A DNA stretch of 59,752 bases, filler included. It is 4 parts of 4 records of this genome, joined end to end, with 100 filler letters (N's around TTAATTAATTAA, not from the genome) between each part and the next. Parts side by side here need not be neighbours in the genome. Positions count along the whole stretch, not along the records: positions 31,676 to 53,015 come from SRR2962707_1183; 3 more parts are not named here. One strand, 5' to 3'. Of the stretch, positions 31,676 through 53,635 are shown piece by piece. The translations under genes and the position numbers were made by a program. The notes below the pieces were generated by a model. It ran no database searches, was not told the DNA's origin, and saw nothing but the letters and a program-made list of their open reading frames with translations. How positions within the stretch are numbered: position 1 is the first letter of the stretch; each line of letters starts with the position of its first letter.

Positions 31676-31769
31676 GAACCGCAAAGAAACATATTGAAAA
31701 CTTCAGTTTCCATTTCCAAGAAATTAAGTAATAGAGCTGAAACTCTTTTATAACATTACTATAATTCAT
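31676..31769 (-). CDS. Possible N-terminus of a divergent gene running off the contig
   Basis: Open frame MNYSNVIKEFQLYYLISWKWKLKFSICFFAV... up to the contig end. Confidence 0.35.
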
Positions 31770-31968: not shown

Positions 31969-34900
31969 ATGATTCCAATAGAAGACGCTAATAAATACAT
32001 CGAAAAACATCAAAAACCAGAAGTAGACCGTTTTGAATTTCGGTTGTTCTCTGAACCTTATAAAATTTTAGGGAAAATATTAGGAAGAATCGAAAAAGAA
32101 GAAAGAGTATGGTATAATGTTTCAGATTTTATTGCAGCATTTGATGATCCGCTTACTATAAATCCTTGGTCGAATGAAGAAGGTATGCGCCTAGCAATGC
32201 AACTTTACGGGGTGGTACATGCACCTTATCTAGCTGGCATGTGGGATTTTATGAACACACTACCTTATCAAAAAGGTTATGATAGACAAGCATTTAGATC
32301 AAAACCATCAAAAGATATTTTAATTAATAAAATAAATTACTTAATCCGATTTTTACAATTTAGTAGAATGGGTTATAATGGATTAACACTTCAAGAACAC
32401 TTTATATACAGTACGTATCATCCTAATTTTAGCAGTTATTTTTTAGCCTCAGTTCTTCACAATGCCGAAGGAGTTTTCGATGAATTACTAGACAATATTA
32501 TTCAAGGTGAAGATGAAATTGGAGGAATTAGTGCAGATATTATTAAAGCGCTGTTACTTTCTGATGAGGAAAAACATTGGGAGATGGTCTCTAAATTATT
32601 ACTTGCGGCTCAACGCCAAGAAGGTTTAAGGCAAACCATTTTAGAATCGCTAGACGAGTCTAGTCTTGGTGCGCTTAAACATATAATCAATGTGGTATTA
32701 GAAAATGATTTAACACGCTTTAGTAGTGTAACTAGAGCTGTTAGTACTTGGTTTGGCTTAAGATGGGATCTCCCTAAAAAACCAGTTATAAATCGTGTTT
32801 TAACACTTGCACAATCTTTAATTTTAAATTTAAAAGAAGTAGATGGCTATCTTAAAAGTAAAGACAATTTAGAAGTTTTAGTCGGTTTATGGGCTATAGG
32901 AATTTTAGACGTCGATACAGCAAATAGGAAAGCACTAGATATAGTTTTCTCTTCCGAAGATAGAAACAAGAAGATTTTAGCATTGTATTTTATTTGGAAA
33001 ACAGAGCGTACTAATGATGCCTTAGTACCATATTTTACTAAAGAGCTAGGAAAAGATTATGCATTAGACCATTGGATGGCGGTAAACTTACCTCCTACCA
33101 CATTAAATAATGATACTTTTGAGCGCCTATTAACGGTTGCAAAATCTGTGACAGAAAAAGGCAAAACCTTCGAAAGTAAAATATTCTCGTGGTGGAGCTT
33201 TACACCTGAACCAACGTATTTCTTCCAGTTTATTATCAATAGCGCTACAGAAGCACAATTAGAGTTAATGGCGAACGATTTTGAAGAATTTCCTACAGAA
33301 TATAGAGAAACCTATATTCGTAAAGTATTTCCTTTACATTATAGCTATTCTTTTAATAATTATCAGCAACAGTCTAAGAAAAAAGAGCGCCTCAATTATG
33401 ACCAAAATTTTTGGAAAAGAGCTTTAGCTAGACGTGCTATTTATAACCGAAATGAGGTAGTTATGGCTACGGGATTGAATTTATTTAGTAAAATGCATTT
33501 GTATGACGCAGATTTGGAAATTGCTGAAGATTTACTAAGACGAAAACATAAAGGATTACGTACCTCTTTAATTCAGTTGTTGGTTGACTTGCCAGTAGAC
33601 CGCTTAAGAAAGAGTGTTACAAATTTAGTAACAGCAAAAAATATTGATCAGCGATTAGCTGGTTTAGAAGTATTAACTATTTTACACGACGCCAATAGAC
33701 AATCGGATTTTATTGAAACGCAAATAAGCCTTTATAACGAGCGTCCTAAAATCTCTAAAAACGAACAAGTCTATTTAGATAAGTTTTCAAACAATACGCA
33801 AGAATATAATTATAATAATGGTTTTGGAGCGGTAAATTATGATGATTTATCACCACTTTATATTCCACAATCTCATTTTAAAACAAAAACTAGTTTTTTA
33901 GATAAATTAGGAATTTCAACCTCAGACTCTTCATCCTTTAAGTTTAAAGAATTTATTAATGTCAACAAAATAGTTACTCAAGTAAATCTATTGATTGCTC
34001 TTGTTACCGAAAACCGACATTATGAATACCAAATGGAAGGGTATCAAGGAGAAATGCATACTACATATATAGAGAAAGGGCTTCACCAAATAAAAGAATT
34101 GAGGGATGATGCTACAGCAGAAGACCATTTGCATAATATTCCTTTAGCCCACTTATGGATAGAATGGTATAAAAAAAGTGAGCTCAATGATTTTGAAATG
34201 TATGCTGCCATACGTTATATCAATAATAGTAGTTACCCTTACGGATATTATAAAATATTAGAACCATTTTTAAGGCAATATTACCCAGACTTATCTGGAT
34301 TAAGTATAGGAAATAAAGACACCCATTACTCTAGGTTAAATAGTTATAACAAAATTTTAAAGCGTTTATTTAGGGCATATGTAGACACCAGCACAGTAGC
34401 CGACTTTAAACTTCATATGTTCGAAGACATGATTGCTAATTTCCCTGATAAATTTAAATTAATAAAGTTTCAAGATAATGGTTACCATTATACAACAACT
34501 TATAATTGGACAAGTATAATACTTCAATTAACCCCAAATTTTAGTGTCAATAATTTAAACCAACTTACTTCAGAGCAACTTTTAAAGTACTGGAATATTA
34601 AAATGTATTTAATAGCACAAAACATTACACACCCTACAGTTGCTTCAAATATTAAAGTGCTTACTGATAATTCAGAAAAAAGAAGTAATCTGGAATTTCC
34701 TGAGATTGAAACCACCTTAAAACTATATGAAAACGGTTTAATTAACAACGATGATTTACTTCTCCAAGCTTTAAATAAAAATCAATTAATAACCATTATT
34801 GATGGTGGTTTTAATTATAGGATGAATTACAAAAATGGATTAAAGCAAAATACAATTCCTAAAGAAGTCTTTCTCCCTTTAAAAACCAATTTATTAGAAA

Positions 34901-36969
34901 CAGAGTTAGAACGAGGAGATTTGGCAACACCTGCTTCTAATTACATTAATGCAATTCATAGAGTTGAAGGTGTTGATTATGTATTCAGAGTTCTAGAACG
35001 TTTAGGAGAAGAAACTTTTGAGCGCGGGTACAGCTATTATGGAGATAGTAAAAAGTCTAAGTTTAGTGCTATCCTCAAAATGACCCAGTTTAAAGACACC
35101 GAATCTTATGCTGATTTTGCTAGTCTTGCAGATGCTTTAAAAATTAGCAAAATACGTTTTATAGAATTGGCGTGTTATGCTACGCAGTGGGCTAGTGTTG
35201 TGGGCCAATATTTAAAAATTGATAATTTAGAAAATGCTGTTTGGTGGTTTCAAGCGCACGCTTCAGATTATATGAATAGCGAAAAAGAAACTATTATTTC
35301 CCGGTACTCTAACATCCCAAAAAACGATTTCTCGTTAGGCGCAATAGATATCGATTGGTTTAATAAAGTATATAATAGCTTAGGTAAAGCAAACTGGAAA
35401 CTACTTCATAAGGCTGCAAAATATATTACAGATGGTAATGGACACAGACAAGTAAAATTATACTCTAGTGTTATACTAGGGGAAGTTAAAATTACCGAAA
35501 CCCTACAAAAAATTAAAGAAAAACGTGATAAAGATTACGTGCGCGCATTAGGATTAATTCCTTTAAGTAAAACCGTTCCAGAAAAAGATTTATTAAAACG
35601 CTACAATCTACTACAAGACTTTTTAAAAGAAAGTAAACAGTTTGGTCAACAACGACAAGAAAGCGAAGCTATTGCAGTGGAGATTGCTTTAGATAATTTA
35701 TCTCGAAATGCGGGCTACCAAGATCGTGTGCGTTTTAGTTGGGCTATGGAAGCAAAAGCTACCCAAGCAATAATGAAAAATGCAGTTATAACCATAGATG
35801 AAACGGTTATAGAACTCGTCATTACAAACCATGGTAAAACAGAGATTAAGGTTTCCAAAGCTGGAAAATTATTAAAAAATATTCCAGCCAAACTACGCAA
35901 AGAAAAACAGGTTATAGCCTTAAAAGACAACAAAACCTATCTTTCTAGACAATACAGTAGAACACGTTTATCATTAGAAAACGCAATGGTCAACGAAGAT
36001 GAATTTACTGCTTTAGAAATTCATAGTATGATGCAACATCCTATTGTACAAGTGATGTTGAGTAAGTTAGTAATGTACGTTCCTCAAAAAGAGATTTCAG
36101 GTTTTTATGATGAAGGTATTTTAACAGATTTTCATGGAAAAACACATTCGTTAGCTGAAGATGATGTTTTGCTTATTGCACATGCTTCTCATTTGTTCCA
36201 AGTAGTTGAATGGGATAGCTACCAAAAATATTTATTTGCAGAACGGATTACCCAACCATTTAAACAAGTTTTTAGAGAATTATATTTAATAACCAATGAT
36301 GAGCGTGAACATAGTAACCGCTCAGAACGTTACCAAGGATATCAAATTCAGCCTAAAAAAACCGTAGCACTTTTAAGAGGTCGTGGTTGGACCGTGAGTA
36401 TGGAAGATGGCTTACAAAAAGTTTATCATAAATACGGTTTTATAGCTACAATGTATGCTATGGCCGACTGGTATTCCCCATCAGATGCCGAAGCACCAAC
36501 CTTGGAGGATATTCGTTTTCACTCTATAGAAAACTATAAAACCATTCCTCTCTCTGAAATTCCACCGGTAATATTTAGTGAAATAATGAGAGACATCGAT
36601 CTTGTAGTTAGTGTTGCTCACGTTGGTGGAGTAGATCCAGAAGCCAGCCATAGTACTATACAAATGCGTGCTGCATTGGCTACAGCTTCAGCAAGCTTAT
36701 TCAAACTTAAAAATAGTACCGTAAAAGAACGTTACATATTTATAAAAGGTACATTTGGCGAATACACCATACATTTAGGAAGTGGTCAGGTAAGCAAAAA
36801 CGGACTTGCATTATCTATCATTCCAGTGCATAGTCAGCATAGAGGTCGTATGTTTTTACCATTTATAGACGACGACCCCAAATCAGCAGAAATTATTTCT
36901 AAAATGAAATTACTTTCAGAAGATCATAAAATACAAGATCCAACAATTTTAGCGCAAATAAATAGCTAA
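31969..36969 (+). CDS. Large DUF4132-family protein (DUF5724/DUF4132-type, 1666 aa)
   Basis: QRQEGLRQTILE, SKQFGQQRQESE, QPFKQVFRELY and FSEIMRDIDLVVSVAHVGGVDPEASHST motifs typical of DUF4132 proteins. Confidence 0.85.
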   Translation: MIPIEDANKYIEKHQKPEVDRFEFRLFSEPYKILGKILGRIEKEERVWYNVSDFIAAFDDPLTINPWSNEEGMRLAMQLYGVVHAPYLAGMWDFMNTLPYQKGYDRQAFRSKPSKDILINKINYLIRFLQFSRMGYNGLTLQEHFIYSTYHPNFSSYFLASVLHNAEGVFDELLDNIIQGEDEIGGISADIIKALLLSDEEKHWEMVSKLLLAAQRQEGLRQTILESLDESSLGALKHIINVVLENDLTRFSSVTRAVSTWFGLRWDLPKKPVINRVLTLAQSLILNLKEVDGYLKSKDNLEVLVGLWAIGILDVDTANRKALDIVFSSEDRNKKILALYFIWKTERTNDALVPYFTKELGKDYALDHWMAVNLPPTTLNNDTFERLLTVAKSVTEKGKTFESKIFSWWSFTPEPTYFFQFIINSATEAQLELMANDFEEFPTEYRETYIRKVFPLHYSYSFNNYQQQSKKKERLNYDQNFWKRALARRAIYNRNEVVMATGLNLFSKMHLYDADLEIAEDLLRRKHKGLRTSLIQLLVDLPVDRLRKSVTNLVTAKNIDQRLAGLEVLTILHDANRQSDFIETQISLYNERPKISKNEQVYLDKFSNNTQEYNYNNGFGAVNYDDLSPLYIPQSHFKTKTSFLDKLGISTSDSSSFKFKEFINVNKIVTQVNLLIALVTENRHYEYQMEGYQGEMHTTYIEKGLHQIKELRDDATAEDHLHNIPLAHLWIEWYKKSELNDFEMYAAIRYINNSSYPYGYYKILEPFLRQYYPDLSGLSIGNKDTHYSRLNSYNKILKRLFRAYVDTSTVADFKLHMFEDMIANFPDKFKLIKFQDNGYHYTTTYNWTSIILQLTPNFSVNNLNQLTSEQLLKYWNIKMYLIAQNITHPTVASNIKVLTDNSEKRSNLEFPEIETTLKLYENGLINNDDLLLQALNKNQLITIIDGGFNYRMNYKNGLKQNTIPKEVFLPLKTNLLETELERGDLATPASNYINAIHRVEGVDYVFRVLERLGEETFERGYSYYGDSKKSKFSAILKMTQFKDTESYADFASLADALKISKIRFIELACYATQWASVVGQYLKIDNLENAVWWFQAHASDYMNSEKETIISRYSNIPKNDFSLGAIDIDWFNKVYNSLGKANWKLLHKAAKYITDGNGHRQVKLYSSVILGEVKITETLQKIKEKRDKDYVRALGLIPLSKTVPEKDLLKRYNLLQDFLKESKQFGQQRQESEAIAVEIALDNLSRNAGYQDRVRFSWAMEAKATQAIMKNAVITIDETVIELVITNHGKTEIKVSKAGKLLKNIPAKLRKEKQVIALKDNKTYLSRQYSRTRLSLENAMVNEDEFTALEIHSMMQHPIVQVMLSKLVMYVPQKEISGFYDEGILTDFHGKTHSLAEDDVLLIAHASHLFQVVEWDSYQKYLFAERITQPFKQVFRELYLITNDEREHSNRSERYQGYQIQPKKTVALLRGRGWTVSMEDGLQKVYHKYGFIATMYAMADWYSPSDAEAPTLEDIRFHSIENYKTIPLSEIPPVIFSEIMRDIDLVVSVAHVGGVDPEASHSTIQMRAALATASASLFKLKNSTVKERYIFIKGTFGEYTIHLGSGQVSKNGLALSIIPVHSQHRGRMFLPFIDDDPKSAEIISKMKLLSEDHKIQDPTILAQINS

Positions 36970-38508: not shown

Positions 38509-38555
38509 CAAAAATAATAGCTTAATCTATATTTTTAATCCCTATCTTCCGTGAT
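38509..38555 (-). promoter_or_regulatory. Regulon promoter 2
   Basis: Minus strand ATCACGGAAGATAGGGAT (38555-38538), 21-bp gap, TATTTTTG (38516-38509). Confidence 0.75.
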
Positions 38556-38622
38556 ATTTTATATCTTGAAGCTATTCCTTTTTAGAATTATTTAAATTAA
38601 CGCATATACTAAAAAGCCAAAA

Positions 38623-38669
38623 ATCCCCTATTTCGGGGATAAAATCTAAAAAGATTAGCTCTAAATTTG
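38623..38669 (+). promoter_or_regulatory. Regulon promoter 3 (vWA/PurA-like operon)
   Basis: ATCCCCTATTTCGGGGAT with perfect 6-bp arms (38623-40), 21-bp gap, TAAATTTG (38662-69). Confidence 0.8.
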
Positions 38670-38685
38670 TTGAAAACCTTTTATT

Positions 38686-39036
38686 ATGGAAGATCAAGTA
38701 AAGAGTGCAGCGTTTATAGCATCATTAAAACGCAATAACGAAAAAATAAGAGACGATCGTGCGCATGCAATTGCAGAAGATGCACAATTAATGTACAAAC
38801 GTGAAACCGAAGATTTGGCATTATCGCTAAAACGCTTAAAACGTGAACAAGAAAATATGCTTGATATGAGCCCTACAGATGCCAACAGTCTGGTCTTAGC
38901 ATCCGATTTTAATGCGAAAGATTACGTAGCAAAAGACATCGAAATGTCTGTAAAAATAAGGAACTTAGAAATAAAATTAGAATTAGCCAAAAAACGTTAT
39001 TTACATTTATTTGGTGGAACAATAAACGAATTATAA
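38686..39036 (+). CDS. Small alpha-helical/coiled-coil hypothetical protein
   Basis: 116 aa with heptad-like charged helices; ends 2 bp before the vWA gene. Confidence 0.85.
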   Translation: MEDQVKSAAFIASLKRNNEKIRDDRAHAIAEDAQLMYKRETEDLALSLKRLKREQENMLDMSPTDANSLVLASDFNAKDYVAKDIEMSVKIRNLEIKLELAKKRYLHLFGGTINEL

Positions 39037-39038
39037 CT

Positions 39039-39905
39039 ATGGGAGGAGGAAGATTTAGTCACGATGCGTATTCTCGATTGAGAAAATCTAAAGGCTACAG
39101 TAATAAATCTAGAGAAGAAATTTTTACGGCTAGACAAATAGATCCTGAAATGGATCCTACAAAAGTAATAGTTAGAGAGTCTCGAGATTCTGAGGAACAT
39201 CCTGAAACGCTTTCTATTATTGTTGCTTTAGATGTAACAGGAAGTATGGGGTTTGTGCCAGAGCATATTGTAAAAGAAGCTTTGCCAGACCTTATTGGTT
39301 CTTTAATGGAAGCTGGTATTGAACATCCACAAGTGTTATTTTTAGGCATTGGAGATTTTATTTATGATAATGCACCATTACAAGTTGGACAATTTGAGTC
39401 ATCAGCAGAGTTATTAGACCGTTGGTTAACCCGAGTTTATTTAGAAGGTGGCGGAGGTGGAAACAATCAAGAAGGCTATAATCTAGCACATTTATTTGCT
39501 GCAAGACATACATCGATTGATTGTTGGGAAAAAAGACAACAAAAAGGATTTTTATTTACCATTGGTGATGAACCTGTTTCTTCTGACATTCCTGCTGAAA
39601 TTATAAAGAGATATACCCTTGCAGATGAGGCAGAAACCATAACTACAGAAGCCATTATTAAAGAGGCTCAAGAGAAATACAATGTTTTTCATATGCATTT
39701 AGAACATAATGAATTGTCTAAGCAAGAAAAACGTAAGGGAAATTGGAAAACGCTTTTAGGCGAAAATTATATGGAAATACCAGATTTTAAATCCGTGGCA
39801 AAACGGATTGCAGAAGTGGTCATTAACAACCATAAACCAGGTGCCGCTACCAATAGATTTAATGCTTCTGGGAGTTCAGATATTAAAGTAGAGAATATGC
39901 TATAA
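39039..39905 (+). CDS. vWA-domain protein
   Basis: MIDAS-like IIVALDVTGSMG, plus FLGIGD, EGGGGGNNQEGY and FTIGDE. Confidence 0.85.
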   Translation: MGGGRFSHDAYSRLRKSKGYSNKSREEIFTARQIDPEMDPTKVIVRESRDSEEHPETLSIIVALDVTGSMGFVPEHIVKEALPDLIGSLMEAGIEHPQVLFLGIGDFIYDNAPLQVGQFESSAELLDRWLTRVYLEGGGGGNNQEGYNLAHLFAARHTSIDCWEKRQQKGFLFTIGDEPVSSDIPAEIIKRYTLADEAETITTEAIIKEAQEKYNVFHMHLEHNELSKQEKRKGNWKTLLGENYMEIPDFKSVAKRIAEVVINNHKPGAATNRFNASGSSDIKVENML

Positions 39906-41039
39906 ATGCAAAAATGTAGTCTTGTTATAGATTTGGGATTTGGTGATGCCGGAAAAGGCTTAACAACAGATTTTCTGGCATCTCAGTGTCCTCAAAAAAG
40001 TATCATCGTTCGATTTTCTGGAGGTCATCAAATTGGCCATACTGTTAGCACAAAAGAACTTACGCATACCTTTAGTAATTTTGGTTCGGGTACGTTATTA
40101 GGAGTACCTACTTATTATACTGAAAATACCACTCTTTTCCCACCTGGGATTCTAAAAGAAGGGAATTTTCTAAAAACATACCAGCCTAAATTATACTTAA
40201 ATCCATTGGCTATGGTAACTACCATTTATGACATAGCCTATAATCGAGCCATTGAAAAACAACAACATCACGGGTCTTGTGGCTTGGGCTTTGGAACAAC
40301 AATCGCTCGAAACAAGGAAGAAGTTTATTTATATGCCAATGATTTAAAATTTCAATGGGTTTTGAAGCAGCGTTTACAAAGCATTAAAACCTACTACCAA
40401 CATAAACTAAAAACCGAGAACAAAAGTGTTCAAGCGTATTACCATAATGAATTAAAAGAATACGATGAAGACTTCTTCATAAATTGCTGTATAGCCATCC
40501 AGAAGTTTTATAATGTAGCCTCACTTTCAGAGTTAGCATTCACTTATGAGCATTTTATTTTTGAAGGTAGTCAGGGTATTCTATTAGATACCCAACACGG
40601 TTTTTATCCACATACCACTTGGAGCTACACCACATCTAAAAATGCTATTCAGCTTATAAAAAAACATTTAAGTGTTTCAGCGGAAATAGACATCTATTAC
40701 ATTACGCGTTGTTATCAAACCCGTCATGGTAATGGACCTATGTCTAACACGGAAGCTGTAACACTTTTGAATAATGAAAATGAAGCAAATATCACCAACG
40801 AATTTCAAGGGGAGTTTAGGACCAAGGCATTGGATCATGAATTACTTAATTACGCCTTAAGTTGTGACTCTATTCATTATCAAAATTTAAAAATTAATAA
40901 ATATTTAATATTGACATGCCTAGATCAACTTCCGGATTTTTCATGTGAAAGCTTACTTCAAAAAGTAAAAACTAAATTCAAAACAGTTTACGGTAGTTAT
41001 GGACCTAAACGCCAATGTATCAAAGTTATTTCAAAATAA
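39906..41039 (+). CDS. Divergent adenylosuccinate-synthetase-like protein (PurA paralog)
   Basis: GFGDAGKG, GGHQIGHT, FEGSQG, YPHTT, TRHGNGP, TCLD and SYGP are collinear with PurA motifs; aspartate-binding loop altered. Confidence 0.88.
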   Translation: MQKCSLVIDLGFGDAGKGLTTDFLASQCPQKSIIVRFSGGHQIGHTVSTKELTHTFSNFGSGTLLGVPTYYTENTTLFPPGILKEGNFLKTYQPKLYLNPLAMVTTIYDIAYNRAIEKQQHHGSCGLGFGTTIARNKEEVYLYANDLKFQWVLKQRLQSIKTYYQHKLKTENKSVQAYYHNELKEYDEDFFINCCIAIQKFYNVASLSELAFTYEHFIFEGSQGILLDTQHGFYPHTTWSYTTSKNAIQLIKKHLSVSAEIDIYYITRCYQTRHGNGPMSNTEAVTLLNNENEANITNEFQGEFRTKALDHELLNYALSCDSIHYQNLKINKYLILTCLDQLPDFSCESLLQKVKTKFKTVYGSYGPKRQCIKVISK

Positions 41040-41185
41040 ATCAGTATGCCAATTGCCAACGCATTAGGCATTTTATAAAAAATGTATTTTTAGATCCAAG
41101 GCAAGCCTTGGTGTATTTAAATTTCCATTATACCGTAAAGTAATTCTGATGCATCACTCTCTAGAAGTATTTCGTTATTTTCAAA

Positions 41186-41232
41186 ATCATTAGTTTCAGG
41201 GATAAAGAACTCATTAGTTCAAAGTACCTTAG
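41186..41232 (+). promoter_or_regulatory. Regulon promoter 4 (operon containing the two-component system)
   Basis: ATCATTAGTTTCAGGGAT (41186-203), 21-bp gap, TACCTTAG (41225-32). Confidence 0.72.
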
Positions 41233-41256: not shown

Positions 41257-42309
41257 ATGAACAATCCCATATTATATTCAGAAGGTTTTAAAGCACTGAA
41301 GTGGAATGATTTTAATTTCAAAACTATTCAAATAAACACCCTTTCAGCTCTTAAAGATCCAAGACACTATAACAACTGTTTTATTTTTAGAGATTCACTT
41401 ATAAAGGCCGTTGAAGAAGTATCTGGAAAGAAAGTTTCTAAGCTTCTTTTCATTACTCCAGATTATAAAACTGTTTATAAATTCTACATAATTGCTTATT
41501 TAGAAGGTAAAATAGTTTTCCCGCTTACAATAGAAAACACGCCATTATTTAAAGAATGGTTTACGGCTATAGATGATGAAAAGGATAAAGATCTTATTTC
41601 TACTATTTATAACTTCAGTCATAGTAGTTATAGCTCACAACCGATTACTAATTTAGAGCATATGACTTTTCATGAAAATACAGGGGATTTTATTAATCAA
41701 TTTATTCCAAATGAGTTTATAGCTGAACAATTGGCTAAAGAAAAGGCTGATTTTTTAAATCCTTATATTCAATTAAAAGCACAAATTAATATTGAAGAAG
41801 TAAAGCAAACCTTTGAAACCTTAATTAAGGCTAAAGGGTTAACCATAAATTCTCCGACAAATAACGATGCCATTTATGATGCTTTTGAAAAAGAAGCGGG
41901 ATTTCCTTTTCCACAAATTATCAAAGCGTACCTAAGCTTGCATAATGGTATTGACAGATGCGCCATAATGGGTGCTGAAACAATTTACAAAGAATGGAAA
42001 CAATGGAAAGCTATCTATGATGATTGGACGCAAGAAGAGTTGCTAGATACGTACACTACAAATCAAGGAAAAGCATTATTAATGTACACTACCCCTTATT
42101 GGATTCCATTTTTTGATTTAAGTAATGGCAATTTTTTAGCCTTCGATTTTGCACCTAATACCAAAGGTACTGCTGGGCAAATTATTCGTTATGGTGCCGA
42201 TCAAGAAATTGGATATATCCATGCAGACAACTTACATACATTTCTAAAAAGTTTACTAAATAATGAAGGTGAAATTGAGGATCATGAATGGTTTTATACA
42301 GCCCAGTAG
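41257..42309 (+). CDS. SMI1/KNR4 (SUKH) domain protein with an unknown N-terminal domain
   Basis: FEKEAGFPFP..IKAYLSLHNG and WIPF...NGNFLAFDFAP..KGT.GQII motifs. Confidence 0.85.
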   Translation: MNNPILYSEGFKALKWNDFNFKTIQINTLSALKDPRHYNNCFIFRDSLIKAVEEVSGKKVSKLLFITPDYKTVYKFYIIAYLEGKIVFPLTIENTPLFKEWFTAIDDEKDKDLISTIYNFSHSSYSSQPITNLEHMTFHENTGDFINQFIPNEFIAEQLAKEKADFLNPYIQLKAQINIEEVKQTFETLIKAKGLTINSPTNNDAIYDAFEKEAGFPFPQIIKAYLSLHNGIDRCAIMGAETIYKEWKQWKAIYDDWTQEELLDTYTTNQGKALLMYTTPYWIPFFDLSNGNFLAFDFAPNTKGTAGQIIRYGADQEIGYIHADNLHTFLKSLLNNEGEIEDHEWFYTAQ

Positions 42310-52892: not shown

Positions 52893-52939
52893 CAAAGTTG
52901 GCGCAATGCACTACATTTTAAGTAACCAATTTCAGTGAT
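52893..52939 (-). promoter_or_regulatory. Regulon promoter 7
   Basis: Minus strand ATCACTGAAATTGGTTAC (52939-52922), 21-bp gap, CAACTTTG (52900-52893). Confidence 0.68.
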
Positions 52940-53116: not shown

Positions 53117-53635
53117 AATAAAAGCGCCTCGATTTTAGTGGCCACCGATGTTGCGGCACGCGGTTTAGATATTGATGATATGGACATGGTGATCAACTAC
53201 CATCTTGCTCACGATCCACAAACCCATGTACACCGTATTGGTCGTACCGGTCGCGCAGGTAAAAAAGGTATCGCTTGTTCAATTTATGGTGACGCAGAGC
53301 AATTTAAAGTGGCGCAAATTGGTGACCATTACGAATGTGATTTCTTACCAGAACAATTACCGCCATTTAGCTTACTTGAAAAGCCACCGTATAAGCCGCA
53401 AATGGTCACCCTGATGATTGATGCAGGTAAAAAACAAAAAGTACGTGCTGGTGATATTTTAGGGGCGTTAACTGGCAAAGATGGTGTAGCAGGGCGTCAG
53501 GTTGGTAAAATTAACGTACTTGATAACGTGGCTTTTGTTGCTGTTGAACGTAATTCTTCAAAACCAGCACTACGCAAATTAACTGAAGGTAATATTAAAG
53601 GCCGTAAAATACGCGCCCGTCGCCTAACTCGTTAA
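53117..53635 (+). CDS. dbpA: ATP-dependent RNA helicase DbpA, C-terminal fragment
   Basis: [22 protein letters not shown] and the C-terminal [16 protein letters not shown] DbpA RNA-binding domain. Confidence 0.9.

Follow-up and report, generated by a model that had tools for sequence, protein, structure and literature searches.

We describe a cassette of three genes at positions 38686–41039 of a 59,752-nucleotide stretch of DNA (hereafter the window: parts of four records of one genome joined end to end, with positions 31,676 to 53,015 coming from SRR2962707_1183). Its third gene codes for a relative of adenylosuccinate synthetase (PurA, EC 6.3.4.4, PF00709), and since this relative always travels with a protein of von Willebrand factor A (vWA) fold, encoded by the second gene, the pair probably carries out a nucleotide-ligation reaction that is so far uncharacterised. 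The more specific reading we favour, and to which we would give an even chance, is that of a heteromeric, two-subunit, GTP-dependent purine-C6 ligase with an acceptor other than aspartate, borne by a mobile module which resides mostly in phages.

The cassette consists of three open reading frames (ORFs) on the + strand, with gaps of 2 bp between the first and the second gene and 0 bp between the second and the third, exactly as had been claimed in a first-pass annotation made from the letters of the window alone:

38686–39036, + strand: small charged helical protein of 116 amino acids (aa), the variable third partner of the module
39039–39905, + strand: vWA-fold protein of 288 aa with a putative metal ion-dependent adhesion site (MIDAS) of the type D65-x-T67-x-S69 plus D177, and a conserved MG N-terminus
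39906–41039, + strand: truncated PurA-family ligase of 377 aa, phosphotransfer core intact and aspartate loop replaced

The product of the third gene belongs to the PurA family according to its match with PF00709 (1.4e-34; 120 bits against a gathering score of 27), and it also matches phrog_1211 (1.2e-50). However, it stays below the cut-offs of the purA equivalog models of NCBIfam (96.5 bits versus 402, and 81 versus 395.55) and of the PurZ model NF038379 (34.2 bits versus 300). Sequence alignments with PDB entries span only residues 5–285, with 19–22% identity to the listed structures from E. coli, H. pylori and Yersinia and lower values for others. An AlphaFold2 model built on 71 relatives (predicted local distance difference test score, pLDDT, of 95.6) resembles 43 PDB chains at E<=0.001, all of them PurA or PurZ, with TM-scores of up to 0.76; the predicted fold hence agrees with the earlier description of the protein as a divergent PurA-like ligase.

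Motifs were compared among 71 aligned relatives and the canonical PurA proteins of four related genomes. The Asp and Lys of the P-loop, the catalytic His and the Gln of EGxQG, which we take to be the phosphotransfer residues, are retained: G13, D14, K17 and G18 of the P-loop GDxGKG are found in 70 of the 71 relatives, and H45, E220, Q223, D228, R273 and G275, belonging to the GGxQxGH histidine, EGsQG...LD and TRxGNG motifs, in all of them. The canonical aspartate loop GATTGRxRRCGW, in contrast, is replaced by [FYW]-Q-G-x-F-[RK] throughout the family (Q301 in 70/71), the residue aligned with R303 of E. coli varies (E29, K10, N10...), the Val of the canonical TRVG is a His in 71/71, and Cys or His stands in place of the Lys of the (T/M)KxD motif. 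Compared to canonical PurA the protein is shorter by about 60 residues at its C-terminus, and the C-terminal sub-domain is lost. According to PMC8342488, R303 of the E. coli enzyme touches both the ribose of IMP and free aspartate, and the TT loop tip has a role in aspartate binding; the aspartate-contacting tip is described there as strictly conserved in PurZ. Judged by these motifs, the enzyme seems to have preserved the chemistry of activation, but not the site for aspartate.

The second gene product largely escapes the family models. Pfam holds no family matching it at E<=0.1, and only two of 65 relatives match PF00092, weakly; NCBIfam has no family for it, a sequence search of the PDB gave no match at E<=10, and the ESM Atlas returned only 'hypothetical protein' clusters for both proteins searched. 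It does match phrog_2971 (1.8e-44), and a full-library HMMER search retrieved 1597 representative clusters at E<=0.001, among them 506 at <=1e-30. Though there is no Pfam match, a fold comparison of its AlphaFold2 model (pLDDT 92.8) with the PDB gave 274 hits at E<=0.001, of which the 50 listed are all vWA/integrin-I type domains or proteins holding one, so that the predicted structure agrees with the name of vWA protein given to it before. D65-x-T67-x-S69 and D177 are invariant and may form a metal site, as a DxTxS variant of the MIDAS pattern DxSxS...T...D. Likewise invariant are R46, E47, D50, S51, D106, Q115, Q118, E120, G139-G140, E145, H218 and W236, and M1 and G2 are the same in 71/71 sequences. 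Because so many invariant polar residues lie beyond the MIDAS, the protein fits a subunit better than a loose adaptor.

The association of the two genes is close to absolute. In a bacterial survey with one genome per species, which yielded 35 loci, the vWA-like and the PurA-like gene are side by side in every locus (at a distance of about 1.5 kb in L033), and in distant bacterial loci nothing is conserved besides the pair. A scan of IMG/VR showed at least 563 viral stretches with the module. Among the best 80 loci, which were examined, the PurA-like gene lies beside the vWA-like gene in 72, and in each of the eight others the contig breaks off no more than about 2.2 kb downstream. Isolated phages comprise 218 records with the vWA-like and 238 with the PurA-like gene, with genus tallies that agree, and phages of Vibrio, Rhizobium and Mycobacterium (cluster C) have the two genes next to each other. 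A GIY-YIG/NUMOD homing endonuclease gene occurs in 13 viral loci, and in many of them (e.g. L050, L070, L082, L093, L096 and L098) it is inserted between the two core genes. The module is mostly borne by large phages, which the first-pass annotation had missed, and the operon in the window is a bacterial copy.

Both domains also occur within one protein. Nine of 25 longer homologues carry PF00709 in addition to the vWA-like domain, and of the six that were inspected, P0153, P0156 and P0159 look like clean fusions. Three others of the 25 (P0165, P0169 and P0172, about 510 aa) combine a vWA-like domain, in which the MIDAS motif is preserved, with two U-box/zf-Nse domains of ubiquitin-ligase type in place of PF00709.

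The first gene of the cassette is less constant. Its 116-aa product, for which neither Pfam nor NCBIfam has a family, contains the invariant residues F10, R16, R25, R39, E42, D43, D60, S62, P63 and L108 (34 sequences), and it is encoded directly upstream of the vWA-like gene in 28 of the 35 bacterial loci (L004–L031) and in 42 of the 80 viral loci; the seven Saprospiraceae-type bacterial loci are without it. One alternative partner, of 294 aa and similar to Rizal gp250, combines a J-domain-like HPD motif with a kinase-like region behind it (24 viral loci), and another is a Met/Gly-rich family (five viral loci as well as the Vibrio and Rhizobium phages). When the profiles of the small protein (cc, for the coiled coil ascribed to it earlier), of the J-like/kinase-like and of the Met/Gly-rich partners were compared, neither the cc nor the J-like family showed kinship with another (probability <=0.7%), and the one relation seen was that between the two Met/Gly-rich sets (87%). 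All three genes of the cassette occur together widely, in line with the first-pass annotation. What is constant in bacteria and phages, however, is the pair, and the putative coiled-coil gene is one of at least three options for the upstream place, which that annotation had missed.

A separate canonical purA gene (553–580 bits) is present elsewhere in the genomes of all five cassette-bearing relatives, where the cassette copy scores 110–152 bits, and no purine-synthesis genes are among the neighbours annotated between 27.8 and 58.5 kb of the window. These data support the view that the PurA-like gene is not the housekeeping purA; the first-pass annotation had called the module non-housekeeping and had noted the lack of purine-biosynthesis genes nearby, and both statements agree with what was found.

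From the motifs, the folds and the co-occurrence we infer the following complex, chemistry, acceptor and role. One operon would encode a mobile module with a two-subunit enzyme as its constant core. The PurA-family subunit would phosphorylate a 6-oxopurine nucleotide on its C6 oxygen at the expense of a nucleoside triphosphate, probably GTP; this catalytic subunit appears to have lost the loop for L-aspartate, and the vWA/MIDAS subunit, always encoded alongside, would supply or control the acceptor site. The expected product is a purine nucleotide joined at N6 to an amine other than free aspartate. The acceptor might be a small amine bearing a carboxylate or a phosphate or, less likely, an amine of a protein. 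The 116-aa helical protein would act as an exchangeable accessory partner, and in the Flavobacteriaceae-type island the operon would be driven by a conserved promoter box which it has in common with its SUKH-type neighbour.

A prediction of the putative complex of both proteins with GTP and Mg, run without family alignments, gave a score of 0.00 and counts neither for nor against it. Several points weigh against such an enzyme. To our knowledge, every characterised enzyme of the PurA family uses free aspartate. The adjacency of the two genes could stem from regulation rather than from a shared active site. A basic residue (R/K305) is kept in the replaced loop in 71/71 relatives and, from the alignment, leaves room for a carboxylate-bearing substrate, possibly even aspartate. 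Among the inspected fusions, P0158 and P0162 look like frameshifted or read-through gene calls, and P0154 is devoid of the P-loop part. The second purA, finally, was shown in cassette-bearing relatives only.

Bacterial copies of the vWA-like protein form two separate clades in a quick maximum-likelihood tree of 86 sequences, in which the root was placed for drawing only. The cc-type clade (support 99) contains Flavobacteriaceae, two metagenome-assembled genomes (MAGs) of Pseudomonadota and one of Treponemataceae, and lies inside the viral half with cc and Met/Gly-rich partners, while the Saprospiraceae clade (support 100) stands beside the viral clade of the J type. The type of third partner follows the tree, with 13 label changes as opposed to 45.8 in shuffles. 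The gene is present in six of 301 sampled Flavobacteriaceae genomes; between four genera, identities amount to 91–94% for the cc protein, 83–92% for the vWA-like protein, 70–83% for the PurA-like protein and 77–92% for canonical PurA, and the wider island is syntenic in 22 loci. Given this sparse occurrence, the high identity and the synteny, the island is a patchy, accessory one, which is either under tight constraint or of recent spread, if not both.

The viral neighbourhoods are mainly accessory in nature. Recurrent families comprise HAD_SAK_2, R2K ATP-grasp proteins, ATP-dependent ligases, Ro60/TROVE, UvsX/RecA-like proteins and GIY-YIG homing endonucleases, and R2K ATP-grasp peptide ligases neighbour the module in 14 viral loci. 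A Ro60-type TROVE plus vWA protein is encoded within a few kb of the module in L056 (8346–9866) and in four other viral loci. Together with the HAD_SAK_2, PNKP-like ligase and R2K ATP-grasp genes that recur nearby, it lends the surroundings a flavour of RNA repair, for which no link with the module emerged. Genes annotated as NMNAT/Nudix and phosphoribosyltransferase are found in the Rhizobium phage locus only, whereas genes of an anaerobic ribonucleotide reductase adjoin the module in the Vibrio phage. Families of NAD salvage were absent from the ten recurrent viral neighbours scanned. In the 36 bacterial sequences (window plus 35 loci), a Nudix box was found once, in L036 at about 6103 (+ strand), approximately 1.9 kb upstream of the vWA-like gene of a Bacteroidota MAG. 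The operator of NrtR, which PMC2330246 gives as a 21-bp palindrome with the core GT-N7-AC, was detected in none of the 36 corresponding upstream regions. No single consistent pathway is seen in the phage neighbourhoods.

The following elements flank the cassette:

38540–38559, + strand: the box motif repeated farther upstream as CCCTATCTTCCGTGATATTT (24 aligned upstream regions, motif scan)
38623–38644, + strand: promoter box ATCCCC-N6-GGGGAT (38623–38640) plus AAAA, 22.4 bits with a matrix from 24 sites
38662–38669, + strand: Bacteroidetes-type -7 element TAAATTTG, read from the sequence; TA..TTTG conserved in 24/24 aligned upstream regions
41096–41121, + strand: terminator-like hairpin CCAAGG-CAAG-CCTTGG (41096–41111) with a T-rich tail, from a consensus scan only
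41188–41207, + strand: promoter box repeated before the SMI1/KNR4 gene (41257–42309), matrix score 16.3 bits

The -7 element conforms to TAnnTTTG, the Bacteroidetes-type consensus, and the hairpin starts 57 nt past the stop codon of the PurA-like gene. With the box and the -7 element upstream and the terminator-like hairpin after the third gene, it is supported that the three genes form a transcription unit of their own, behind their own promoter as had been proposed. An identical 168-nt contig from a marine metatranscriptome library covers 39726–39893, at the 3' end of the vWA-like gene; a single RNA contig of this kind is too little for a claim of transcription, and DNA carry-over is possible.

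The palindrome at 38623–38640, which had been singled out as the most symmetric regulator box, is unique in the window: TCCCC-N4-8-GGGGA has one match, versus 0.06 expected and at least one match in 6 of 100 shuffles. The perfect symmetry is, however, special to this window, and palindromy is not conserved in 23 related loci, which keep the asymmetric YTTTCAGGGATAAA instead. Across 24 aligned upstream regions the conserved core reads ...TTTC(A/G)GGGATAAAA and lies about 21 nt upstream of TAnnTTTG; a weaker copy of the box is found about 70 nt further upstream of this core, and the upstream copy of the motif is kept as ..CTGTATTCCGTGAT... The palindrome at 38623 could also be read as a - strand terminator; we discarded this reading, as there is no - strand gene ending at that point and related loci do not keep the symmetry.

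In a matrix scan, the only two sites of >=14 bits in the window were the cassette promoter and the copy at 41188. The box position before the SMI1/KNR4 (SUKH-type) gene is occupied in 20 of the 23 related loci, in which further sites precede upstream genes of the - strand (L004–L026), while mononucleotide shuffles of the 23 loci gave three matches in all. This recurrence suggests a small regulon with a putative regulator. The earlier reading of a non-housekeeping nucleotide-modifying module, inducible with immunity-type genes, is thus partly supported and right in kind, the cassette being co-regulated with its SUKH-type neighbour; none of the tests, however, points to a signal, a toxin or a role in defence, and PADLOC returned one weak match. 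A histidine kinase with tetratricopeptide repeats (TPR) and a LuxR-type response regulator are encoded in the island. A box-like motif was also noticed at 52930, just upstream of an ORF (53138–53635, 165 aa) that comprises the last 40 positions of Helicase_C and a DbpA RNA-binding domain and, by these domain matches, looks like the C-terminal fragment of a DEAD-box helicase.

One alternative is that of a genuine auxiliary adenylosuccinate synthetase isozyme boosting AMP synthesis during phage infection or stress, with the vWA protein as a regulator or chaperone. The fold and the phosphotransfer residues are kept, phage records label the gene adenylosuccinate synthetase, R/K305 is retained, and the Vibrio phage locus adjoins ribonucleotide reductase genes; we nevertheless consider the isozyme unlikely in view of the replaced TT tip, the variable R303 position, the Val to His exchange in 71/71 relatives, the score of 96.5 bits versus a cut-off of 402, an obligate vWA-like pairing that is not found with ordinary purA, and the fact that the tested hosts already own a canonical purA. 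An enzyme of the PurZ type, making 2-aminoadenine (Z) nucleotides for DNA modification, comes to mind since PHROGs gives the family a PurZ-derived name and PurZ structures are among the fold matches (TM-score 0.66–0.68). Like PurZ (deoxyguanylosuccinate synthase), the protein is a short, phage-borne member of the PurA family, and its predicted fold matches 7odx, 6fko and 7vf6. Yet it reaches only 34.2 of the 300 bits required by the NCBIfam PurZ model, it lacks the loop tip in contact with aspartate, strictly conserved in PurZ according to PMC8342488, it has a vWA partner, and the module also sits in bacterial chromosomes. Genes of the datZ, mazZ or dpoZ type did not turn up among the neighbours annotated in the window, with no search aimed at them. 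A PurZ function is accordingly very improbable.

Location among SUKH, DUF4132, DUF6892 and DUF1266 genes, one of which has the promoter box in common with the cassette, would suit a bacterial system of anti-phage defence or conflict (abortive infection), in which a trigger leads to depletion or poisoning of the nucleotide pool, as would the patchy occurrence (6/301 Flavobacteriaceae genomes) and the presence of three phyla within one clade. We doubt this explanation, about as much as the isozyme: the module is far commoner in phages, the cc (91–94%) and vWA-like (83–92%) proteins are more conserved between genera than housekeeping PurA (77–92%), and the island is syntenic across genera, unlike fast-turning defence islands. 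The sole PADLOC 2.0 match, AbiEii, covers 70 residues of the vWA-like protein at E=0.0015, a weak hit at the level of chance, and the other four proteins scanned gave none. Slightly less probable still is a protein-modifying enzyme that ligates a purine nucleotide via C6/N6 to an amine of a protein. This amine could belong to the N-terminal glycine of the vWA protein or to a lysine in a target held by the MIDAS. Such an enzyme would fit the M1-G2 invariant in 71/71 vWA-like proteins, the U-box/zf-Nse fusions in 3/25 longer homologues, a J-domain-like HPD/kinase-like protein among the third partners, the R2K ATP-grasp peptide ligases adjoining in 14 viral loci, and the lost C-terminal sub-domain of the PurA-like protein. 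However, proteins are not known as substrates of any enzyme of the PurA family, and the strong conservation of the new loop speaks for a small substrate of defined identity. There is a correspondingly slim chance that this is a protein nucleotidylation of a new kind, used by large phages in host takeover and borrowed by a few marine bacteria. The two-subunit purine-C6 ligase with a non-aspartate acceptor remains the reading we prefer.

The wider window gives the bacterial copy its setting. Neighbours between 27.8 and 58.5 kb code for a giant DUF5724-DUF4132-DUF7737 protein, a DUF7738-DUF6892 protein, SMI1/KNR4 and DUF1266 proteins, TPR proteins, and the TPR histidine kinase and LuxR-type response regulator mentioned above. 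The giant protein (1666 aa, 31969–36969; 942 bits to DUF5724) is absent upstream of the cassette in the 35 related loci. Near 30.5 kb the G+C content falls from about 49% to about 32% (1–31000 versus 31000–54000), and the cassette lies in the low-GC part, which matches Flavobacteriaceae loci; the high-GC part, which holds P450, aminotransferase and other genes, may be of foreign origin or may result from chimeric assembly. In one isolate run, the record with the cassette region is just 19.8 kb long.

Comparison with known vWA systems likewise shows partial resemblance. MoxR-vWA pairs, TerY/TerF and vWA-RING ligases of the RGLG type have in common with the cassette protein the vWA fold and a MIDAS-type DxTxS...D, and the fusion of some of its relatives to U-box domains recalls RGLG1, a eukaryotic vWA-RING ligase which is among the fold matches. 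In contrast to MoxR and Ter proteins, the cassette has neither an AAA+ MoxR partner nor Ter genes nor a Pfam vWA match, and its vWA protein is set apart from known partners by an extension at the N-terminus (MG..., RESRDS) that is particular to the family and by a GGGGGN loop. The Ter and MoxR comparison draws on the jumbo-phage survey PMC7824862 and on background; the passages of the survey consulted do not mention PurA. In the literature we found no description of the vWA-like/PurA-like pair, its RNA-repair context or the DUFs of the island, in keeping with the initial remark that no system of this architecture had been characterised.

The pair is a very common one without a described function. 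At 50% identity it makes up 1597 clusters; it is known from no fewer than 563 viral stretches and from some 220 isolated phages, to which the well-studied cluster C mycobacteriophages belong. Because the activation chemistry of PurA appears to be kept without the aspartate site, the product is probably a new N6-linked purine. Solving the function would provide a new reaction for nucleotide biochemistry and account for an accessory function of large phages, and would also explain why marine Flavobacteriaceae retain a phage-type copy under a dedicated regulon.

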